From Vectrevirus NIC06P3: 45,947 nucleotides of DNA. The translations under genes were made by a program, and so were the position numbers. Below, piece after piece: positions 8,671-25,260 of this stretch; the stretch's first letter is position 1, and every line of letters begins with the position of its first letter. The notes under the pieces are model-generated. The model saw only the letters and a program-made list of their open reading frames with translations. It was not told where the DNA came from and ran no database searches. The stretch is taken from sequence record OZ035778.1; one strand, given 5' to 3'.

Positions 8671-9590
8671 AGGCGTGTGTGAGCTCTCTCGCCCTCGCCC
8701 TCGCCGGGTTGCCCCCCCCCCCCCCCGCCCCCCCCCGCCGCGCCGGGGGCCGGGGGGGGGGCGGGGGGCGGGGGGGGGGCCGGGCCCGCCGCGCGCCGCC
8801 ACCCGGGAGGAGGCCCCCGCGGCCGTAGACGCGCTGTGCCTGAGCGTCCCCGCCGCGGCCGAGACGGCCCTGCGGCGTCTCCTGGTCGGGGAGGCCGCGG
8901 CGCCTCAGCGCGAGGACGCCGGGTCGACGGCGGCGGCGCCGGCCGGACCGGGCTCCTCCTCGGGCGAGCCCGGCGAGGGCGCGCTCACGGACCAGGCCAG
9001 CCAGAGCCCCAGCGCGTAGAGCGGCAGACCCATCACGAGACGGGCGACGCCCAGGGCCGTCGCCGCGTCCGCGAGGTAGAGCGGCACCTGCACGCCCAGC
9101 CGCAGCGCGAAGACGGCCGCCATCACCCAGGTGGCCGCCGCGTAGGCGCGCCGGCGGCGGGGGTCCGCACGCCATGCGGTCCCCTCCCCGCGCACGAGGC
9201 CGAGGATCAGGCCCACCACGGGCCAGCCCGCGAGGATCGAGACGAGGAACGCGAGGCCGTAGCCGGCGTTCGTGATGAAGCCCCAGAGGTAGTAGTCCCG
9301 GGCCTGCCCCGTGGTCAGGGCCACCGCCACCGAGAGCACGACGACGACGAGCCCGGCCAGGACCTGCGCGGGCGACTGGCGCTGCGCGAGCCGGACCACG
9401 CCCATGAGGACGGCCACGCCCGCGGCGGCCACGCCCGAGGGCCACACCTGCTGGGCCCCCGTGGTTTGGGGGGGTCGTTGTGGTCTGAATCCGCGCGTTT
9501 TCACAATGTAAATTTTTTTTTTTGAGGGGTGGTTGTGCCCGCCCCCCCCGCCCCCCGGGGGGGGCCCCCCCCCCCCCCCCCCCCCCATAT
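8671..9590. other. foreign high-GC block bounded by C/G homopolymer tracts (probable chimeric/artefactual insert)
   Basis: Abrupt composition shift; C16/C8/G10-type runs at 8711-8790 and a C22 run at 9565-9586; T11 run at 9514-9524; minus-strand frame reads like a truncated polytopic membrane protein. Confidence 0.6.
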
Positions 9591-9659: not shown

Positions 9660-10236
9660 TTGCCTTGTACTATCTTAGTGATACACAAGGGAGGACGCCT
9701 AGGAAGCGCTAGGGCACGCCTTAGTATTGGACAAGGTGATTGCCTTAGTGCAACCACTTTGGGCTTACACAGGCCGTTTTAGGGCCATTCTGGGCTATTG
9801 ACAGGGTGGGCGTGGGTGGGCTATCTGTTCGTTTCGTTCACTCCGCTTGCGCTACGTTCACTCGCTCACGTGTACCTTAGGTTATTGCTTGATGGGTAGC
9901 TTAAGTTAACCTTAGTGGATTGCCTTAGTTAAAGCCTTAGTGCTTCACTTAGTATCAGCTTAGTAGTGTACCTTAGTTGGTCTTAGTTCCTTATCTTAGT
10001 GATTGCACATGCAAGCATATAAGATGCCAATAGGTCGCGGTCGGTAGACCGCTAAAGAAAGAGAATAGTAATAAGATGCAGCAGGAGGAACACCAGAAAC
10101 CTAGCCAACCTAACCTATCCTAGCCTTGTATCTATTGCTTATCCTTAGTCTCACACGTTAGACAACCTAGGTTTATATTAGTAGTTGTGACCTGTATCAC
10201 ATAAATAATCTATCTTAGTGAAACTTAGTGTTGACA
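9660..10236. repeat. array of short CTTAGT(G) repeats in the genome left-end non-coding region
   Basis: At least 15 copies of (C)CTTAGT(G), eight of them within about 100 bp (9900-10010); analogous to the short repeat arrays near T7 termini. Confidence 0.55.
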
Positions 10237-10259
10237 CAGGCAATCAACAGGTGTACATT
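10231..10259 (+). promoter_or_regulatory. host sigma70-like early promoter
   Basis: TTGACA, 17-bp spacer, TACATT. Confidence 0.55.
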
Positions 10260-10410
10260 AGCAATCACTGAGGCGGACCTAGCAAGCTGCCTCAGGTTAT
10301 AAGCAGGAGAATTGATGCGTAAGCCATAGCTAATGGATGTAGTCGCATGAAGGCTTGAGTAAGGGGCCGTTTAATACCTTCTTCCTCTGGAGACAAAGCT
10401 TATAGCACTG

Positions 10411-10424
10411 CTCTTTAACAATTT
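10411..10424 (+). promoter_or_regulatory. conserved early-leader motif CTCTTTAACAATTT (candidate RNase III processing site)
   Basis: Identical 16-mer GCTCTTTAACAATTTG recurs at 11026-11041; resembles my recollection of the T7 R0.3 region (CTCTTTAACAATCTGG). Confidence 0.35.
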
Positions 10425-10741
10425 GCTTAGTGTAACCTATGTATGCCGTGGTTAATTACTTATTGAATGAGGAATTAGCTATGAATTACGAAGAAATGTA
10501 TGAAGCCTACTTCAATGCACTTGATGAAGGAGAAGAAGCATTATCTTTCGCTGAGTTTGTGGAGGCTTTATCATGACATTAAATAACCGTGAGCTATCCG
10601 TTCTCTTCACTCTGTTATGCTACATGATCCGTAACAACGAATTGCTTACAGATGACGAGTTGGCACTATATCACCGCTTTCTGAATGAAGGTTGGACCGA
10701 TACAGTTAACCAGAAACGTGATTTGATTAAGGAGTTAAGCA

Positions 10742-10966
10742 ATGTTTAAACATGAAATCTTCTTCGAGGCAGGAAGTGAAGCACTACGACTACTAGAAGA
10801 GATGGAACAAGCTGGTGTAGCTGTTGACATCACAACCTTTCTTCTGGATTACAACAGAGACTATTATAGTGTTACCTTAGTGACTGAGTATGATAATCAG
10901 GTAATTACCGAGTATCTGGGTAGTGAAGATTATGATTACGATGAAGTAATCACAACAAACTTCTAA
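10742..10966 (+). CDS. hypothetical early protein, strongly acidic
   Basis: 74-aa ORF with RBS AAGGAG; D/E/Y-rich C-terminal half. Confidence 0.45.
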   Translation: MFKHEIFFEAGSEALRLLEEMEQAGVAVDITTFLLDYNRDYYSVTLVTEYDNQVITEYLGSEDYDYDEVITTNF

Positions 10967-10974
10967 ATTAACCA

Positions 10975-11003
10975 TTGACAACCACGGCATACAAGGTTAC
11001 ATT
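10975..11003 (+). promoter_or_regulatory. host sigma70-like early promoter
   Basis: TTGACA, 17-bp spacer, TACATT; upstream of ocr. Confidence 0.55.
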
Positions 11004-11132
11004 AAGCACATAGCCGAAAGGCAACGCTCTTTAACAATTTGGATAAAGCTTCTTAGTCTGGCGAGGTTAGACCTAGGGTATTCTTTTGAGTACCCTATAA
11101 TGTAACCTAACTAACTAATGAGGATTAATAAC

Positions 11133-11486
11133 ATGGCTATGTCTAACATGACTTACTCTCAGGTTTACAACACTGCTCATGCTGCACTGGTTGAACGCGT
11201 ATGGGATGATGCCATTGATTGTATTGATAACGCACATGATGCAATCCATGAGGTAGCGGATGGTGCTGTACCAGTCTATTATGCTAACATCTTCTCAGTG
11301 ATGGCGAGTGAAGGTATTGATCACTTCTTCGAAGACTCCGGCCTGATGCCAGACACTAAAGATGTGACGGTAGTATTGCAAGCCCGTATCTATGAGCAAC
11401 TTACAATCGACCTGTGGGAATGTGTACAGGATATGATTGATGCGTACATCGACTCAGCCGAATACTCAGAAGAAGAGGAAGAATAA
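11133..11486 (+). CDS. ocr: Ocr (gene 0.3) DNA-mimic anti-restriction protein
   Basis: MAMSNMTY..., [31 protein letters not shown] and [15 protein letters not shown], with acidic EEEEE tail, closely match T7 Ocr as I recall it. Confidence 0.85.
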
Positions 11487-11592: not shown

Positions 11593-11616
11593 ATTTAGCT
11601 GACACTATAAGAGAAG
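11593..11616 (+). promoter_or_regulatory. variant phage promoter (ATTTAGCTGACACTATAAGAGAAG)
   Basis: Three mismatches to the SP6 consensus; strength unknown. Confidence 0.4.
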
Positions 11617-11683
11617 ATTTAACAGGGCGTTACTTGTTAGCGCCCGATTAAGTTTATCTCAATAAACCAAATAGGTGATTATT

Positions 11684-15259: not shown

Positions 15260-15331
15260 TATTGATAGGCCATTCCTTCGGGAGTGGCCTTTTCTTTACC
15301 TACTACCTGTAACATTTCATTAACATAAAGT

Positions 15332-15718: not shown

Positions 15719-15937
15719 ATGGCTAAATATAGAATTAAGACACACATGGATTGCAGCGGTGTGGAACGTTATACAGTTCAGCGTAAAATACTAGGATTAT
15801 TATGGGTAGATTGCATCATACCGTTTGGATATGTAGATGGCCCTGCTATCTTCTCTCATGAAGAAGATGCCAAGGCATTTATATCAAAAAGAAAGAAGAT
15901 TGATTCCTATAAGTCTAAAGTTATTAAGGTGAACTAA
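15719..15937 (+). CDS. hypothetical protein
   Basis: 72-aa ORF with RBS GGGAG; stop overlaps the primase/helicase start. Confidence 0.4.
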   Translation: MAKYRIKTHMDCSGVERYTVQRKILGLLWVDCIIPFGYVDGPAIFSHEEDAKAFISKRKKIDSYKSKVIKVN

Positions 15938-17916
15938 TGGCTATTATTAATAACATCCCGTGCCCTGCCTGCCAGAAGAATGGACACGATAAATCCGGCA
16001 ATCATCTTATGATATTTGATGATGGTGCTGGCTATTGTAACCGTGGTCACTTCCACGATAATGGCAGACCTTACTACCATAAGCCTGAAGGCGGCATCGA
16101 GATAACCGAGTTGCCTATCACAGGTAACATCAAATACACCCCTTCCCAATTCAAAGAGATGGAGAAGGAAGGGAAGATTAGCGACCCTAAACTACGCGCC
16201 ATCGCACTTGGTGGTATGCGTATGAAAGACCGTTGGGAGGTCATGAATGAGCAAGAAAGGGCAGACCAAGAAGCAGAGTGGAAACTTGATGTTGAATGGT
16301 TCCTCACGCTTAAGCGTAAGAACCTTGTTTCCCGACACATTCGCGGCGACATTTGCGCATTGTATGATGTACGTGTCGGACACGATGAAGAAGGTAGAGT
16401 CTCGCGGCATTATTATCCACGCTTCGAAAAAGGTGAGTTAGTAGGCGCTAAGTGTCGCACATTACCTAAAGACTTTAAGTTTGGTCACTTAGGCAAGCTC
16501 TTTGGTATGCAAGACCTTTTCGGGATGAACACTTTGTCTCACGTGTTAGACAAGGGAAGACGAAAGGATTGCTTACTTATTGTAGGCGGTGAACTTGATG
16601 CACTAGCAGCGCAGCAGATGCTTCTTGATTCTGCCAAAGGCACTAAGTGGGAAGGCCAACCCTACCATGTATGGTCTGTCAACAAGGGGGAGTCTTGCCT
16701 TGAAGAGATAGTGCAAAACCGTGAGCACATCGCCCAATTCAAGAAGATTATTTGGGGCTTTGATGGAGATGAGGTAGGGCAGAAGCAGAACCAGCAAGCG
16801 GCTCGCCTGTTTCCCGGCAAATCCTATATCCTTGAGTACCCTTCTGGTTGCAAAGATGCTAACAAGGCATTGATGGCTGGCAAGTCTAAAGAGTTTGTGG
16901 ATGCATGGTTTAATGCCAAGTCCTCTGATGAAGTCTTTGGTAGCCAGATTAAATCTATCGCATCTCAAAGGGACAAGCTCAAAGCTGCACGCCCAGAGCA
17001 AGGGTTGTCATGGCCTTGGCCTAAGCTGAACAAGGTAACGCTAGGTATTCGTAAGAATCAGCTTATCATTGTAGGTGCAGGCTCTGGTGTGGGTAAGACT
17101 GAGTTCCTTCGTGAAGTAGTTAAGCATCTCATTGAAGAGCATGGAGAATCTGTAGGCATCATTTCTACAGAAGACCCGATGGTCAAGGTATCCCGTGCCT
17201 TTATCGGTAAGTGGATTGATAAGCGTATTGAACTACCGCCAACCAACGATCCGAAAGAGGATGGATACCGTGAGGTGTTCGACTACACAGAGGAAGAAGC
17301 TAATGCTGCCATTGATTATGTAGCTGACACAGGGAAGCTATTTGTGGCTGACCTAGAAGGTGACTATTCAATGGAGAAGGTGGAGCAAACTTGCCTTGAG
17401 TTTGAGGCTATGGGTATTTCTAATATCATCATTGATAACTTAACGGGGATTAAATTAGATGAGCGTGCTTTTGGTGGGAAGGTTGGTGCACTTGATGAAT
17501 GCGTCAAGCGGATTGGTACTATCAAAGACCGACACCCAGTTACTATATTCCTTGTATCACACCTTACACGCCCTGCGGGAAATAGAGTCCAGCACGAAGA
17601 AGGTGGCGAGGTTATCCTTTCTGACTTCCGAGGCTCAGGCGCTATCGGATTCTGGGCATCTTACGCCTTGGGGATTGAGCGTAATACAAGAGCTGAAACG
17701 CTTGATGAAAGGACTACCACGTACATCTCATGTGTCAAAGACCGTGACCAAGGTGTGTGGACTGGCACTAAAGTGAAACTTAAAGGTGATATGACCACAG
17801 GGAGGTTGTTGGAATGGGAAGATCGTGTTTCTAGATTTGACACAGGTATCCCTAAGGAGCAAAGTGTACCTGATGAAAACACAGGAGAGTTGAATGAAGA
17901 AACTTCAGAGTTTTGA
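15937..17916 (+). CDS. DNA primase/helicase (T7 gp4-like)
   Basis: N-terminal zinc ribbon CPACQ ... CNRGH; Walker A GAGSGVGKT; 659 aa. Confidence 0.93.
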   Translation: MAIINNIPCPACQKNGHDKSGNHLMIFDDGAGYCNRGHFHDNGRPYYHKPEGGIEITELPITGNIKYTPSQFKEMEKEGKISDPKLRAIALGGMRMKDRWEVMNEQERADQEAEWKLDVEWFLTLKRKNLVSRHIRGDICALYDVRVGHDEEGRVSRHYYPRFEKGELVGAKCRTLPKDFKFGHLGKLFGMQDLFGMNTLSHVLDKGRRKDCLLIVGGELDALAAQQMLLDSAKGTKWEGQPYHVWSVNKGESCLEEIVQNREHIAQFKKIIWGFDGDEVGQKQNQQAARLFPGKSYILEYPSGCKDANKALMAGKSKEFVDAWFNAKSSDEVFGSQIKSIASQRDKLKAARPEQGLSWPWPKLNKVTLGIRKNQLIIVGAGSGVGKTEFLREVVKHLIEEHGESVGIISTEDPMVKVSRAFIGKWIDKRIELPPTNDPKEDGYREVFDYTEEEANAAIDYVADTGKLFVADLEGDYSMEKVEQTCLEFEAMGISNIIIDNLTGIKLDERAFGGKVGALDECVKRIGTIKDRHPVTIFLVSHLTRPAGNRVQHEEGGEVILSDFRGSGAIGFWASYALGIERNTRAETLDERTTTYISCVKDRDQGVWTGTKVKLKGDMTTGRLLEWEDRVSRFDTGIPKEQSVPDENTGELNEETSEF

Positions 17917-18385
17917 GGAAGCAGGATATGTCGTCAAGGAAGACGGCACGATCTTAAACCCAAAAGGTTTGGTCAGAAAACCATCCTTCGCAGGTAGGAA
18001 TGTTAAATACTATGTAGTATCTTGGAGGGATAAACACTCTAAGAAAACAATCATAGATTTAGTTCACAGATTGGTTGCTAAGAAGTACATACCTAACCCA
18101 TATGGTTTACCAGAAGTTCATCATAAAGACTTTAATCCTCTTAATTGTCATAAAGACAATCTTGAATGGACAGATGGTAAGTCTAACTGTGAGTACAGTT
18201 ATGCAAGGGTAAAGGCTTCACTTGCACGTCGTGCTACTTTGTTGTCACCTGATGGCACTAAGTACGACATATTTAATGTTCGTAAATTCTGCCGTGAGCA
18301 TAACCTCAATCCACCCAGCATATTTGAAGTGCTTAGTGGTAAGCGTAAATCTCACAAAGGGTGGACTATTTACCGGACACTATAG
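17894..18385 (+). CDS. HNH homing endonuclease
   Basis: VHHKDFNPLNCHKDNLEW HNH motif; overlaps the primase/helicase 3' end and runs into the downstream promoter. Confidence 0.75.
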   Translation: MKKLQSFEEAGYVVKEDGTILNPKGLVRKPSFAGRNVKYYVVSWRDKHSKKTIIDLVHRLVAKKYIPNPYGLPEVHHKDFNPLNCHKDNLEWTDGKSNCEYSYARVKASLARRATLLSPDGTKYDIFNVRKFCREHNLNPPSIFEVLSGKRKSHKGWTIYRTL

Positions 18386-18652: not shown

Positions 18653-19336
18653 ATGTGTAAATTAGTATTGAATGCAGGTGATTATGTTCGTAACATCAAT
18701 GAGATCTCACGTCGCTATCGTTGCCGTGGCGTTGTTAGCGATGTAAGTGAGAATATGTACCACGTAGTATATAGCAATGGTATCAGTCAGTCTTATCACA
18801 AGAAGTCAGCACACAACTACCTTGAGAAGATTGGAGAGGCAAGCAATCAATGTAAGTGTGTACACGATGAGGTTTGCGATAAGTGTGCTCGCCAGATGCA
18901 GAAGGTGGTATTGCATCACCACCTGTACAGAGGTGGTATTCAAACCTTAGCAGAGGCGTGTGGCACAACTAAGACTACTCTCAAGAAAGAGCGCCGCAAT
19001 GTAATCACTGGTAAGACTCAGAGTGAAATGATTAAGCAATGTGGCACTGCATTAGGTGTATCACAGTTTAACACTCGTGCATTGGGTAAATCCACAGGGC
19101 AAGCTATGGTTAAGATTGGTGAAGCCATGATGCACCCAAATGTACCTGTGCGAATCATGGATGTTGACCATGCAATCACAGAACATGGTACACCACGACG
19201 TGTAGCTAATAAGCATTTTGCCGACACTATAGAAGGTATTATTCGTAAGCAAGGGTTGAAAGGTCTTCACCTCTTGAATGGTGAAGAATTACTGTACCTT
19301 CCTATCGTTACTGAAGAAACCTACGTGAATATCTAA
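18653..19336 (+). CDS. hypothetical protein
   Basis: 227 aa from ATG 18653 with RBS TGGAG; Cys-rich segment CKCVHDEVCDKC; contains an internal promoter-like core at 19213-19236. Confidence 0.5.
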   Translation: MCKLVLNAGDYVRNINEISRRYRCRGVVSDVSENMYHVVYSNGISQSYHKKSAHNYLEKIGEASNQCKCVHDEVCDKCARQMQKVVLHHHLYRGGIQTLAEACGTTKTTLKKERRNVITGKTQSEMIKQCGTALGVSQFNTRALGKSTGQAMVKIGEAMMHPNVPVRIMDVDHAITEHGTPRRVANKHFADTIEGIIRKQGLKGLHLLNGEELLYLPIVTEETYVNI

Positions 19337-20039: not shown

Positions 20040-20136
20040 GCCTTTCATCATGTTGATTGGAGGTGCATTATGCCACGTGATTATGATTCTGATTGGGACT
20101 ACTATGACTCAATGAATCCAAAACCCGAACGTTCAG

Positions 20137-22710
20137 ATGATTACTACGAAACAGAGGCAATGTATGAAGATTACTGATTGGAAGAAGGAGGCAAAAGGCC
20201 GTATCCTAGTAATGGATGCGGAGGCTAAAGGCTTGCTTGATGCTATCCGATATGGACACCGCGAAGATGTGCACATCATTTGCTGCATGGATTTGCTTAC
20301 TACCGAGGAGTTCCTCTTCTTTGACCCGTATGAGATGCGTGACCCTGAAGCAAGGGAGCGCCTGAAGGAATGGGAAGGGCATCAAGACGGTGACTTGGTT
20401 GACGGTGTTAACTTCCTGAAGCACTGTGAAGCTATCGTGTCACAGAACTTCCTAGGTTATGACGGCCTTCTCTTTGAGAAAGCATTCCCTACTATCTGGA
20501 AAGGCTTTAACTATACCGAGAGGCGCGGCAAGGGCAGACTCCGCGCCGACCTGTGTCCTGTGCGAGTCATGGACACGCTGGTGATGAGTCGCCTGTTAAA
20601 CCCCGATAGACGCCTTCCTCCGCAAGCATATGCCAAAGGTATGGGTAACGTCGCCCCTCACTCAATTGAGGCGCACGGCATCCGTATAGGCCGCTATAAA
20701 CCGGAGAACAAGGACTGGTCTAAGCTGACCGACCACATGGTTCACCGTGTACGTGAGGACGTGGCGATTGGTCGTGACTTTTTCCTGTGGCTGTATAACG
20801 GGGAGTGGGTGGAGCACAAACGCCGTGGCGTGAATAAACGTACTGGCCTAGGCATTGAGACAGCCTTCCACATGGAGTCCATTGTGGCGCTGGAGATGAG
20901 CCGTCAGGCCGAGCGCGGATTCCGTCTGGACATCGACAAGGCTTTGTCCCGATGCGAAGAACTGGACGCTAAGATTGATGAGACAGTCGCAGCGTTCCGC
21001 CCGCACATGCCTATGCGTATCAAGTCTAAACCTTTTAAACCGGAAGAAAAGAATGAAGTATGCCAACGCGCAAATGAGTATGGAGCTAGCAACAATATAC
21101 CTACTATCCTGGACCCCTCACACTTTCTTCATGCCGAGAGACGAGGAGATCGCAAGACAGTATGGAGTGTCACTACTAAGTCTGGTGATTGGTCGGCTAG
21201 TGTCAAGAAAGACTTTCCTCACCTTAGAGGAAACCGTAATGACACGCCAAGCATCAAGTGGATTGGCGCTTACTCTCCTGTTACGTTTGAAGAGATTCCC
21301 TTGGGAAACCGTGACACCGTTAAGCAAGTGCTCTACGAATATGGCTGGAAAGGTGTGGAGTTCAACGACACAGACCAAGCCTATCTTGATGAAAATGGTG
21401 TCCTACCTAAGCCTTGGAGTGGTAAGATAAATGAGAAATCCCTTACTTTATGGCAAGAAAGAGCAGCACGTGAAGGTAAAACAGTCCCTGATTGGTGCTT
21501 GGGTATCGCTGCATGGTACATACTCGTATCCCGTCGTGGTCAGATCCTCAACCGTGGTGACGTTGAAGTCTTCAACGAGAAAGGTACGTGGCCCTCGCAG
21601 GCTGGTGTACGAAAGTGTCGCGGCCTTGTACCTGTAGCCTTTAACAAGGAGCTAGGAATCAATGCACAGCAATACTACGAGAGGTATGGGTGTTGGCCCA
21701 CGTCTGACAAGGATGACGGAGAGTGGCGTGTACCAGCTATTGCTATTAGCATTGGCACTTCTACGTTCCGTATGCGTCATCGTAACGTGGTTAATATTCC
21801 TGCCCGTGGCTTGTATCCTTTACGTGATTTATTCATAGCAGGTAAAGGTAAGCTAATCCTAGGCTGTGATGGTGCAGGTCTGGAACTACGTGTACTCTCT
21901 CACTTCATGAATGACCCTGAGTACCAAGATATTGTACTGCACGGTGACATCCATACGCATAACCAGATGAAGGCAGGTCTTCCTAAGCGTGATATGGCGA
22001 AGACATTTATATATGCTTTCCTCTACGGCTCTGGTATAGCAAACCTTGCAGCAGTATGTGGTGTTACTGAGGAAGAGATGAAAGAAGTTGTGGCAAGATT
22101 TGAGATTGAGCTACCATCTCTTGCACGTCTTCGTGAGAATGTTATTGCACAAGGTAACAAATTTGGCTACCTACAAGCACCTGATGGACATTGGGGTCGA
22201 ATCCGTATGTCTGGTGGGGAACTTAAAGAGCACACTATGCTTAACGTGTTACTCCAGATGACTGGCTCTTTGTGTATGAAATACGCATTGGTTAAGGCGT
22301 TTGCAGTGATGCGCAAGGAAGGTGTAGCTCTAGATAGCATGGGAAATCCTTGTGGTGTAGCTAACGTGCACGATGAAATCCAGATGGAAGTACCCGAAGA
22401 TGAGGTCTTGTATCTTAACTACGACTTACCTTTCACCTTAGAAGGGTTTGAAACAGAGAAGGCTGCTGTGAAAGCAGTGTTCGATGCAGAGGAGAAACGT
22501 GTTCATGTTGACTCTGAGGGACGTATGTGGTCGGCTGCAAATCTCGTTAGCGTTGATGCTGATGCTGGTGTACTTCATTGCCAGCGCCGTTATCACCGTG
22601 CAGGGCATATCATTGCCGACGCCATGACTTGGGCTGGTCAGTATCTGAAGATGCGTTGCCCGATGGCTGGCGAGTATAAGATTGGTGCAAGTTGGAAGGA
22701 AACACACTGA
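20137..22710 (+). CDS. DNA polymerase (T7 gp5-like, family A)
   Basis: DGAGLELRVLSHFM, KTFIYAFLYGSG and VHDEIQMEV match T7 DNA polymerase motifs; start codon uncertain (20137 or 20164). Confidence 0.93.
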   Translation: MITTKQRQCMKITDWKKEAKGRILVMDAEAKGLLDAIRYGHREDVHIICCMDLLTTEEFLFFDPYEMRDPEARERLKEWEGHQDGDLVDGVNFLKHCEAIVSQNFLGYDGLLFEKAFPTIWKGFNYTERRGKGRLRADLCPVRVMDTLVMSRLLNPDRRLPPQAYAKGMGNVAPHSIEAHGIRIGRYKPENKDWSKLTDHMVHRVREDVAIGRDFFLWLYNGEWVEHKRRGVNKRTGLGIETAFHMESIVALEMSRQAERGFRLDIDKALSRCEELDAKIDETVAAFRPHMPMRIKSKPFKPEEKNEVCQRANEYGASNNIPTILDPSHFLHAERRGDRKTVWSVTTKSGDWSASVKKDFPHLRGNRNDTPSIKWIGAYSPVTFEEIPLGNRDTVKQVLYEYGWKGVEFNDTDQAYLDENGVLPKPWSGKINEKSLTLWQERAAREGKTVPDWCLGIAAWYILVSRRGQILNRGDVEVFNEKGTWPSQAGVRKCRGLVPVAFNKELGINAQQYYERYGCWPTSDKDDGEWRVPAIAISIGTSTFRMRHRNVVNIPARGLYPLRDLFIAGKGKLILGCDGAGLELRVLSHFMNDPEYQDIVLHGDIHTHNQMKAGLPKRDMAKTFIYAFLYGSGIANLAAVCGVTEEEMKEVVARFEIELPSLARLRENVIAQGNKFGYLQAPDGHWGRIRMSGGELKEHTMLNVLLQMTGSLCMKYALVKAFAVMRKEGVALDSMGNPCGVANVHDEIQMEVPEDEVLYLNYDLPFTLEGFETEKAAVKAVFDAEEKRVHVDSEGRMWSAANLVSVDADAGVLHCQRRYHRAGHIIADAMTWAGQYLKMRCPMAGEYKIGASWKETH

Positions 22711-22865: not shown

Positions 22866-23243
22866 ATGTCTATGGTAACTACTCTGGTATACGTAGCTCG
22901 ATGCTTTCGTGGTCTGGCTTATAAATTCAAGTTAAAGGCTATCACAGCTATTAAGTTTCGCATCGAAGCAGTACAGGCAGAACAAGTCAAAGTTGAAGAA
23001 CACCGTAGTTCTCAAATGATTGACTGCCATAATCGCTACTATGCATCTCGTGATGACCTGAATGCACGTCAAGTCAAAGAGGTTGAAGAGATGTTAGCAC
23101 GTCACCAGCAAGAGCGTGACAACCTGAAAGCCGCCTTCGAAGAGAACAAGGCAGTCATTGCCCTTGTACATCAAGCTGCATCTGACAGTCTGAAGAAAGA
23201 GATTGTTATGCTGGAGATTGAACTGGACAACCTGACCAAGTAA
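22866..23243 (+). CDS. hypothetical protein (coiled-coil)
   Basis: RBS TAGGAGG; 125 aa. Confidence 0.5.
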   Translation: MSMVTTLVYVARCFRGLAYKFKLKAITAIKFRIEAVQAEQVKVEEHRSSQMIDCHNRYYASRDDLNARQVKEVEEMLARHQQERDNLKAAFEENKAVIALVHQAASDSLKKEIVMLEIELDNLTK

Positions 23244-23755: not shown

Positions 23756-24562
23756 ATGGCACGTGGTGATTTTGATTTTGGTGCTCAGGTTACTAAAGCT
23801 GAAGGTAAAGTATTTAAGAACCCTGAAGTTGGTGATCATGAAGCAGTAATCTCTGGTATCATTCATGTGGGTTCCTTCCAAGATATCTTTAAGAAAGGTA
23901 ATACCACTGAAGTTAAGAAGCCAGCAAACTTTGTTCTGGTTAAGATTGTCCTGATGGGTGACGATGACAAGAACGAAGATGATTCTCGCATGGAACAGTG
24001 GATGGCTGTACCTCTGAAGTCTGGTGACAAGGCAACACTGACTAAGTTCCTGAATGCAGTTGACCCTAAAGAGTTGCTTGGCGGTTTCGATGACTTCATC
24101 GGTGAATGCTTGACTGCAACTATGGTTGGCTCTGGCGACAAGAATGACGATGGCTCATTCAAGTATGTTAACTGGAAGGGCTTTGGTGGTATGCCGGACA
24201 AGCTGAAGAAACTTGTCATTGCTCAGGTTGAAGAGGAAGGTCTGTCTATGACAGGTCACATTACCTTCGACAAGCTGACCAAAGAAATCATTGATGACAT
24301 CCCTGCTAATCTGGTACGTCAATACCTCTTGAATGAGACGCCTCGTGGTAAGAACCTGTCTGTTGCTGGCTCTCACGTAGAGGCAATCATTAAAGCTGCT
24401 CGTGAAGAAGACCCAGAATGGAAGAAGGCTAAGAAGAAAGACGACGATGATGCTACTCCAGCTAATCGTAAGTCTCTGGATACTGGTGAGTCTGTTCCAC
24501 AGGAAGTTCCAGAAGCAGACAATGCTCCTGCACCGGAAATGGATGAGGACGCGGAATATTAA
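23756..24562 (+). CDS. acidic-tailed protein, possible ssDNA-binding protein
   Basis: 268 aa with strongly acidic C-terminus (... EMDEDAEY); own promoter and about 185-nt structured leader; function by analogy only. Confidence 0.35.
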   Translation: MARGDFDFGAQVTKAEGKVFKNPEVGDHEAVISGIIHVGSFQDIFKKGNTTEVKKPANFVLVKIVLMGDDDKNEDDSRMEQWMAVPLKSGDKATLTKFLNAVDPKELLGGFDDFIGECLTATMVGSGDKNDDGSFKYVNWKGFGGMPDKLKKLVIAQVEEEGLSMTGHITFDKLTKEIIDDIPANLVRQYLLNETPRGKNLSVAGSHVEAIIKAAREEDPEWKKAKKKDDDDATPANRKSLDTGESVPQEVPEADNAPAPEMDEDAEY

Positions 24563-24894: not shown

Positions 24895-25260
24895 ATGTTC
24901 AAGATTGAAACTATCGTAAACCGTGTTGTTAAAGGTGCTGCTCTGGTGTCCGTTGAGTCTTTCATTATCGTCGATGAAGCTGATCAATTGGTAGCTGGCA
25001 CTAAGGCTTATGATACCCGTGAAGAAGCTCAGGCTAAGATTGACAGCATGGGTAACTTTGCTGCTGGTCTGGAGTTCGCACGTGCTTGCTTCCCGGAGCA
25101 GGCTGACAAAGCACAGATCGGTAAGGCTAACATCGTAGCTGAGTATCTGGATTGGATTGCCGCTGGTAAACCAGCGAAAGAAGCTAAGGCTGAAGAAGCT
25201 GAAGTAGTAGAAGACGTAGCTGCACCGGAAGTACCGGTAAGCGAAGAAGAAGAGTTTTAA
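24895..25260 (+). CDS. hypothetical protein with acidic C-terminal tail ending -EEEEF
   Basis: 121 aa; RBS AAAGGAG; flanked by its own promoter and terminator. Confidence 0.5.
   Translation: MFKIETIVNRVVKGAALVSVESFIIVDEADQLVAGTKAYDTREEAQAKIDSMGNFAAGLEFARACFPEQADKAQIGKANIVAEYLDWIAAGKPAKEAKAEEAEVVEDVAAPEVPVSEEEEF

Follow-up and report, generated by a model that had tools for sequence, protein, structure and literature searches.

Two small, strongly acidic conserved proteins of a K1-5-like Vectrevirus genome and their possible partners

Ocr (T7 gp0.3), a DNA mimic, has the structure of an elongated helical dimer. Among anti-defence proteins, DNA mimics are recognised as a class with a broad spectrum (bioRxiv 10.1101/2025.06.06.658234), and the leading injected regions of Autographiviridae genomes vary and often carry anti-defence genes (PMC12455610). 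A different use of acidic protein segments is known from T7 replication, where the DNA polymerase has, at its front, a basic patch on which the acidic tail of the single-strand-binding protein gp2.5 docks (PMC12339929); the C-terminal Phe of gp2.5 is essential according to papers cited in that study.

Here we consider two small acidic proteins encoded in a 45,947-nucleotide DNA sequence from Vectrevirus NIC06P3 (record OZ035778.1), the whole of which is called the window. The open reading frame (ORF) at 10742-10966 is referred to as orf74, that at 20070-20177 as orf35 and the ORF at 10573-10749 as orf58. An earlier note, made from the DNA alone, had singled out the first two as very acidic early ORFs and possible DNA-mimic or decoy proteins. 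We find orf74 to be a genuine gene under strong purifying selection, predicted to encode a compact ferredoxin-like domain, and orf35 to be a conserved peptide resembling an acidic docking tail. The explanation that best accounts for both is that they bind basic surfaces on partner proteins, which we put forward tentatively. Each is already catalogued as a hypothetical protein in many records, and what is new here is only their possible function.

Conservation and composition of the two genes

The genes, with the ribosome-binding site of the first, are as follows.

10729..10734, plus strand: strong Shine-Dalgarno sequence AAGGAG, 7 nt 5' of the orf74 ATG, by direct reading
10742..10966, plus strand: orf74, a 74-residue acidic protein of the K1-5 gp2 / SP6 gp4 family with a predicted ferredoxin-like fold (PHROG 6403)
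20070..20177, plus strand: orf35, a 35-residue acidic, aromatic peptide, K1E gp11.5 (PHROG 15473)

Full-length matches to profiles of unknown function support both. Residues 1-74 of orf74 align with positions 1-69 of 69 in PHROG 6403 (unknown function; E = 6e-23), and tblastn finds the protein at full length in 58 phage records with 67-86% identity. A search of 5.8 billion proteins yielded 45 clusters, 44 of them exactly 74 residues long; in K1-5 the gene is annotated as gene 2. When 13 distinct alleles were compared codon by codon, synonymous changes proved numerous and dN/dS (Nei-Gojobori) was 0.09-0.16 overall. Over codons 44-74 (VTLVTEYDNQVITEYLGSEDYDYDEVITTNL) the protein is nearly invariant, with dN/dS of 0.02-0.08 and dS of 0.3-1.3. 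Given that dS, the constraint acts on the protein rather than on an overlapping DNA signal, and the frequency of synonymous changes rules out both a DNA-level element and recent recombination as the source of the invariant C-terminal half.

The shorter orf35 matches PHROG 15473 over residues 1-35 of 35 (E = 8.3e-22) and is K1E gene 11.5 by annotation. That full-length profile match, together with its location within the replication module and ahead of the polymerase region, places it in the K1E gp11.5 family. It is found in 67 phage records, including Citrobacter, Salmonella, Raoultella and Klebsiella phages, with at least 80% of its length covered in 62 of them, and is intact in all eight relatives examined. 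The earlier note had held that a lack of conservation in related phages would speak against its proposal; both genes are clearly conserved. Searches of Pfam, PHROG and PDB sequences gave no functional label, only these PHROGs of unknown function.

Direct reading of the window bears out the coordinates and sequences in that note, and residue counts and a genome-wide charge ranking bear out its description of the two products as rich in Asp, Glu and Tyr. There are 7 Asp, 10 Glu, 3 Lys+Arg and 7 Tyr in orf74 (net charge -14, pI of about 4, Asp+Glu 23%) and 8 Asp, 4 Glu, 3 Lys+Arg and 7 Tyr in orf35 (net charge -9). In a rough set of 59 non-overlapping plus-strand ORFs of the window, the four most negative charges per residue belong to orf35 (-0.257), the ORF at 10439-10576 (-0.244), orf74 (-0.189) and Ocr (-0.180). 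Set against a genome-wide mean of 0.004 and standard deviation of 0.087, orf74 lies about 2.2 and orf35 about 3 standard deviations out, so that both compositions are true outliers. The dense Asp/Glu and low pI characteristic of the DNA-mimic class are thus present in orf74, whose charge density equals that of Ocr, the genome's Pfam-confirmed DNA mimic.

The first early operon and the family of orf74

Around orf74 the window shares 80-95% DNA identity with 96 phage records, nearly all of them Vectrevirus (K1-5, K1E and relatives), a genus of the SP6 supergroup, Molineuxvirinae, Autographiviridae. Comparison with the linear K1-5 record shows the window to be a circularly permuted Vectrevirus (K1-5/K1E-like) genome with its physical left end near 8689; all its real genes are on the plus strand. 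The features flanking orf74 are these.

10231..10259, plus strand: sigma-70-type promoter TTGACA-17-TACATT, driving the three-gene operon that ends in orf74 (pattern match, conserved in relatives)
10410..10421, plus strand: boxA-like motif GCTCTTTAACAA for antitermination, within the first early operon's leader (exact copy)
10439..10576, plus strand: very acidic small ORF, homologue of SP6 gp2 (PHROG 2061; net charge -11)
10573..10749, plus strand: orf58, homologue of SP6 gp3 and K1-5 gp1 (PHROG 9275)
10975..11003, plus strand: second sigma-70-type promoter, 9 nt after the orf74 stop, driving ocr (pattern match)
11026..11037, plus strand: second boxA-like motif GCTCTTTAACAA, in the ocr leader (exact copy)
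11133..11486, plus strand: ocr, encoding the DNA mimic, the next early gene after orf74 (Pfam PF08684, E = 4.4e-41; PHROG 2568)

Just two matches to TTGACA-17-TACATT are present in the window, at 10231 and 10975, against an expectation of 0.03. There are likewise two exact copies of GCTCTTTAACAA, one after each of these early promoters. This motif corresponds to the core of boxA, the antitermination signal of the E. coli rrn operons, and relatives have between one and four boxA-like copies in their early regions. At least eight matches to the SP6-type phage promoter consensus are present. Going downstream through the early region, one first meets a weak copy at 11593, beyond ocr, and none was found upstream of it there. 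The first operon therefore runs, in order, promoter, boxA, acidic ORF of 31 or 45 residues, orf58 and orf74, and from the positions of promoter, boxA and phage promoters orf74 is the last gene of the first operon read by the host polymerase. The label 'early', which the earlier note applied to both ORFs, holds for orf74, immediate-early by its sigma-70-type promoter and boxA; it does not hold for orf35, which sits in the replication module downstream of the SP6-type promoter at 19215.

The end of orf58 overlaps the start of orf74 by 8 nt (ATGTTTAA), as gp3 does gp4 in SP6 (1099-1275 and 1268-1477), which implies translational coupling. A promoter directly after the orf74-family gene is found also in Vectrevirus relatives, in VEc3 and in Klebsiella phage VR702, and K1E and UTI89UKE2 have additional cassettes between the orf74 homologue and ocr. 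The arrangement suggests an early region built of units, each comprising a promoter, a boxA and a cassette of small genes. The ORF at 10439-10576 probably starts at ATG 10481, giving 31 residues (MNYEEMYEAYFNALDEGEEALSFAEFVEALS), since SP6 gp2 and VEc3 gp01 align from the internal Met and 10481 is preceded by GAGGA. In K1-5, 84 nt of this region are missing.

Homologues of orf74 within Vectrevirus are 58-100% identical. An exhaustive HMMER search with the family profile against 1.84 billion representatives gave eight matches, of which four were PPR-type noise and three were credible distant relatives, two of 73-74 residues and one of 190; no annotated relative turned up in it. The 190-residue relative, a metagenome protein, carries the orf74-family domain at residues 118-185, after an unrelated N-terminal region of 117 residues, and is the sole multi-domain member seen. 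Foldseek comparison with BFVD brought up uncharacterised proteins of 69-74 residues from Citrobacter phage CrRp3, Pectobacterium phage PP1 and Proteus phage PM116, with TM-scores of 0.8-0.9.

The same slot is occupied by a protein of 67-69 residues in SP6 (gp4), VEc3 (gp03) and Klebsiella KpnP_VR702 (gene 6), with a gp3-like gene before it and a promoter and ocr after. Gene 04 of Proteus BigMira lies upstream of an ocr-like gene, its own upstream neighbour being unrelated to orf58. Alignment of the orf74 subfamily with these SP6, VEc3, VR702 and BigMira proteins in hhalign gave a probability of 94.3% (E = 9.5e-8, 67 columns). Features shared across the family are an N-terminal MFKHE(I/V)(F/Y), a central strand resembling (D/E)Y(Y/H)xVTL and a (Y/F)(D/E)(D/E)V(I/N) before the last strand. 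Family membership of orf74 thus rests on a full-length profile match and on a left-end early position after a gp3-like gene and before a promoter and ocr. The whole trio is syntenic: SP6 gp2 (33 residues, net charge -9) corresponds to the 10439/10481 ORF, gp3 to orf58 and gp4 to orf74, an arrangement that spans Zindervirus, Vectrevirus and Klebsiella SP6-like phages.

Net charge varies widely in the family, from -2 in VEc3 gp03 through -4 in KpnP_VR702_6, -7 in SP6 gp4 and -9 to as much as -14. Since the syntenic homologues are so much less acidic, extreme acidity characterises the K1-5 gp2 subfamily rather than the family as a whole, and the same applies to any charge mimicry. In VEc3 an orf58 homologue 95% identical to that of the window stands beside a gp4-family allele with only about 18% profile identity to the orf74 subfamily, which places a sharp mosaic boundary at the gene junction. 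The gp4 slot behaves like a replaceable allele.

Two further stretches of this part of the window deserve mention. Between the ocr operon and a gene of 297 residues preceding the RNA polymerase, positions 11593-11645 hold the weak SP6-type promoter (three mismatches) followed directly by a GC-rich hairpin GGGCGTTACTTGTTAGCGCCC and a T-rich tail; this may mark an early terminator or class switch. Near the left end, positions 8717-9582, some 865 bp of 57-65% GC with long poly-C and poly-G runs on either side, hold a fragment of a DUF3159 membrane-protein gene on the minus strand (Pfam E = 1e-50). They interrupt the phage sequence between GGGTTGCCCCC and ATATGGG, about 28 nt from the physical left end, where all relatives are uninterrupted. 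The segment is almost certainly a chimeric assembly artefact, a high-GC contaminant joined via homopolymer reads, and not phage DNA.

Predicted structure of orf74 and setting of orf35

An AlphaFold2 model of orf74, built from an alignment of 33 sequences, has a pLDDT of 93 and a pTM of 0.80. Its elements (strand 2-8, helix 11-23, strand 27-36, strand 39-48, helix 52-61, strand 68-73) make up a predicted compact, ferredoxin-like beta-alpha-beta-beta-alpha-beta domain. A Foldseek search of the PDB with the model returned GlnK, PII and SbtB at E values of about 1e-3, and the fold can be superposed on PII/CutA1-like members; at 10-16% identity, no Pfam membership in CutA1 or P-II was found. None of the Foldseek matches listed for the model is a DNA mimic, an anti-CRISPR or another phage inhibitor, and no fold likeness was seen to solved mimics such as Ocr, ArdA, Ugi, AcrIIA4, AcrIF2, Arn, gp5.9 and others. 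Structure prediction, suggested in the earlier note as a check on DNA mimicry, thus gave for orf74 a generic ferredoxin-like domain and no likeness to known DNA-mimic or anti-defence proteins.

In a Pfam scan orf74 did not match the ocr profile PF08684, the sole result being PPR_2 below threshold. A PPR identity was rejected, this match being a single stretch of 22 residues (12-33) with 16.4 bits against a Pfam cut-off of 30. Profile matches to designer PPR proteins in the PDB were also set aside: they cover a single helix-turn segment, none is individually significant and the fold is not a helical repeat.

The acidic, Tyr-rich loop EYLGSEDYDYDE lies between helix 2 and strand 4, in the nearly invariant C-terminal half. 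From the predicted topology we infer that Glu9 (beta1-alpha1), D36, Y37 and D40 (beta2-beta3 turn, DYNRD) and E62-D63-Y64-D65-Y66-D67-E68 (alpha2-beta4) share one pole of the domain, whose loops would be topologically equivalent to the T-loop and B-loop of PII. This pole would also carry the most conserved residues and is a candidate binding surface.

Features upstream and downstream of orf35 are given below.

19215..19235, plus strand: nearest upstream SP6-type phage promoter
20022..20040, plus strand: palindromic hairpin TGTCTCACACGTGAGACAG, 5' of orf35 and conserved; the genome has six copies of it
20059..20064, plus strand: Shine-Dalgarno sequence GGAGGT, 5 nt 5' of the orf35 ATG, the same in seven relatives
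20164..22710, plus strand: DNA polymerase, probable start ATG 20164 (MKITDW...), overlapping the 3' end of orf35 by 14 nt

The module runs from primase-helicase through an HNH endonuclease and four small genes of unknown function to orf35 and the DNA polymerase. Lying downstream of the SP6-type promoter at 19215 and of the recurrent hairpin, orf35 is a middle gene rather than an early one. The mechanically called polymerase ORF begins at 20137; the conserved N-terminus MK(I/T)(T/I)DW, an AGAGG ribosome-binding site and the relatives argue for ATG 20164 as the real start. In K1E the next gene is gp12, which follows gp11.5 with the same 14-nt overlap, and a 72-residue gp12 occupies the orf35/polymerase junction in both K1E and CrRp3. 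Sem3 and ULINTec4 have an HNH homing endonuclease between the orf35 homologue and the DNA polymerase, differing from the HNH endonuclease of the window, whose gene (17894-18385) directly follows the primase-helicase. The junction, where an HNH gene or gp12 is found in different phages, is therefore an insertion hotspot, and orf35 keeps its position whether the next gene is DNA polymerase, gp12 or HNH endonuclease.

The hairpin upstream of orf35 belongs to a near-perfect palindrome, TGTCTCACA(T/C)GTGAGACAG, with six copies at 15331, 15517, 18598, 20022, 24791 and 41457. Several copies are just upstream of SP6-type phage promoters and one is just upstream of orf35; the element is probably an RNA processing or termination hairpin. 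Just after the DNA polymerase, positions 22866-23243 encode a 125-residue protein matching PHROG 7450 ('polysaccharide chain length determinant protein', in the moron/host-takeover class).

A single-sequence AlphaFold2 run on orf35 gave two short low-confidence helices with a pLDDT of about 60, and the peptide is probably disordered or folds on binding. Its net charge is -8 or -9 among relatives and its pN/pS is 0.12-0.37. The most divergent allele has 16 non-synonymous changes, nearly all of them Asp/Glu or Tyr/Phe swaps, and retains a net charge of -9 and an aromatic C-terminus. The peptide of the window ends in ...ETEAMYEDY, and all variants fetched end in Tyr, preceded by Glu-Asp, Glu-Ser, Glu-Asn or Glu-Asp-Phe. 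It thus has the properties of docking tails of the kind found on single-strand-binding proteins and helicases, being Asp/Glu-rich, apparently unstructured and C-terminally aromatic. An acidic run with a terminal aromatic residue is found in three further products of the module (primase-helicase ...NEETSEF, 268-residue protein ...EMDEDAEY, 121-residue protein ...VSEEEEF). These ends are similar to that of orf35 and to the docking tails of T7 gp4 and gp2.5.

15937-17916: primase-helicase, acidic tail ending in Phe
23756-24562: 268-residue protein, PHROG 862, net charge -17, acidic tail ending in Tyr
24895-25260: 121-residue protein, PHROG 4429, acidic tail ending in Phe

The 268-residue protein could be a single-strand-binding protein. 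Naming it and the 121-residue protein as single-strand-binding or similar was considered and dropped, neither having a Pfam or PDB match, and both are left unnamed.

Possible functions and comparison with known systems

In the reading we prefer, orf74 would be made from the leftmost sigma-70-type promoter, through the boxA-like leader and before ocr. Our best guess is that its acidic, aromatic pole docks on a basic surface of a host protein and blocks that protein, the target probably being a nucleic-acid-binding defence or housekeeping factor. Acting in the first minutes of infection, it would then inhibit by competition and, unlike Ocr, need not reproduce the geometry of B-form DNA. The orf35 product, a middle-gene micropeptide translationally coupled to whichever gene comes next, looks by analogy like a separately encoded version of the acidic, aromatic-ending tails of the primase-helicase and two other proteins of its module. 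Most likely it would bind to a similar basic patch where such tails dock on a replication protein, the DNA polymerase being the prime candidate.

Several points weigh against this pair of proposals. No characterisation of K1-5, K1E, SP6 or Vectrevirus early genes was found in the literature, nor any binding partner, expression or phenotype for orf74 or orf35. The syntenic homologues of orf74 are far less acidic (net charge -2 to -9), so that a single function shared by the family would be independent of extreme negative charge, and the clustering of acidic residues at one pole was derived from fold topology. For orf35, pN/pS is based on 2-16 substitutions per comparison. Its last 14 nt overlap the start of the next gene, whose ribosome-binding site lies in the Thr-Glu-Ala codons, and its first 30 nt or so, with the upstream hairpin, are invariant as DNA in seven relatives; overlap, embedded ribosome-binding site and invariant 5' DNA mean that part of its conservation does not act at the level of the peptide.

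The DNA-mimic or decoy role envisaged for both proteins in the earlier note is, as matters stand, a hypothesis. In its strict form, orf74 would be a true mimic of the Ocr type, an oligomer whose carboxylates copy the phosphate pattern of a duplex and which blocks restriction-modification, BREX or another DNA-binding defence before or alongside Ocr. The size of orf74 falls within the range of known small DNA mimics, its charge density matches that of Ocr (-0.189 against -0.180 per residue) and it is an immediate-early gene next to ocr; moreover mimics are found in many folds unrelated to one another, and 11 DNA-mimic anti-defence proteins are on record in EVADES. We nevertheless judge this form unlikely, given that orf74 has neither sequence nor fold similarity to known mimics, that homologues at the same locus are weakly acidic (net charge -2, -4 and -7) and that the phage already possesses Ocr. 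The fold itself raises the thought that orf74 is a small oligomeric ligand binder resembling PII, CutA or ACT proteins, serving as a nucleotide or metabolite sponge, a sensor or a regulatory subunit. Conserved loops at what the topology suggests are the T-loop and B-loop positions of PII would fit such a role, but three basic residues poorly suit anionic nucleotide ligands, identity to PII/CutA neighbours is 10-16% and Pfam membership is absent, all of which makes it quite improbable. A role with or on other phage products, as partner or regulator of orf58 or as a tuner of early transcription or genome entry, would account for the 8-nt overlap with orf58 kept from SP6 to Vectrevirus and for the synteny of the gp2-gp3-gp4 trio in Zindervirus, Vectrevirus and Klebsiella SP6-like phages. 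It is hard to square with the upstream neighbour in Proteus Acadevirus, which is not homologous to orf58, and with VEc3, where the 95% and approximately 18% pairing makes tight co-evolution of orf58 and orf74 unlikely. The notion of a conserved co-evolving pair is weakened by both observations, and we give the phage-partner role little credence.

Returning to binding of basic surfaces, the chief competitor on the orf35 side is that the ORF is a mere translated leader, which brings ribosomes to the downstream start or unfolds the upstream hairpin while the peptide itself has no function. The 14-nt overlap kept with different downstream genes, the downstream ribosome-binding site within orf35, the invariance of its 5' part and of the hairpin as DNA and the low AlphaFold2 confidence are all in keeping with this. 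A leader whose peptide is irrelevant would not be expected to show almost exclusively Asp/Glu or Tyr/Phe exchanges among 16 non-synonymous changes with net charge (-9) and aromatic end kept, nor a pN/pS of 0.12-0.37, nor the most extreme composition in the genome, and we regard the leader account as possible but doubtful. A bolder version of the docking proposal is speculative and unlikely to be right in full. It would make orf74 the first characterised member of a new fold class among anti-defence or host-takeover inhibitors (PII-like, acidic and probably oligomeric, produced ahead of Ocr from the first-entering DNA), the gp4 slot an arms-race locus and orf35 a free docking peptide. The invariant Asp/Tyr loop of orf74 would obstruct the basic site at which a host defence or nucleoid protein binds nucleic acid, the divergent alleles of the slot (net charge -2 to -14) would be aimed at different targets, and orf35, a 'tail without a body', would act at the phage DNA polymerase, competing with the acidic tails that replication proteins carry or priming them.

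Should orf74 turn out to act as an inhibitor, the early anti-defence or host-takeover proteins of the SP6/K1-5 group, whose phages are widely used in therapy against encapsulated E. coli, K1 and others, would gain a new family and a new fold. The presence of three genes ahead of ocr on the first-entering DNA would then be accounted for as well, and the divergent alleles at one fixed slot would offer a comparative system for target mapping. If orf35 does bind the polymerase, this would be a docking tail with a micropeptide gene of its own, which is unusual. As things stand, the two are ordinary conserved hypothetical proteins whose practical value is as candidates for screening.

Among known systems, orf74 is closest to the SP6 gp4 family, with which it is homologous and shares a location ahead of ocr, 1-2 kb in from the left end, as well as, in SP6, the 8-nt overlap. 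The K1-5 gp2 subfamily differs from other members in its length (74 against 67-69 residues), in its net charge (-14, with -11 in the most divergent of those checked, as opposed to -2 to -7) and in the invariant segment EYLGSEDYDYDEVITT, which the others lack. With the CutA1/PII-like trimers (GlnB/GlnK, SbtB) orf74 has the order of secondary structure elements in common; it is shorter, has no insertion of T-loop length and very few basic residues, and is 10-16% identical to them. Like Ocr, encoded 150 nt downstream, it is an immediate-early product of the host RNA polymerase, small, Tyr-rich and of equal charge per residue, but sequence similarity is absent and the predicted fold is a compact alpha/beta domain. 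The acidic C-terminal tails of T7 gp2.5 and of the T7 helicase-primase gp4, which dock on the basic patch of the T7 DNA polymerase, resemble orf35 in being short, Asp/Glu-rich and aromatic at the end, in probably being disordered and in being encoded beside the polymerase, and a tail of this type is also found on the primase-helicase of the present phage. The T7 tails end in Phe, whereas orf35 ends in Tyr or Phe-Tyr and is a free-standing 35-residue peptide with no DNA-binding or enzymatic body attached.

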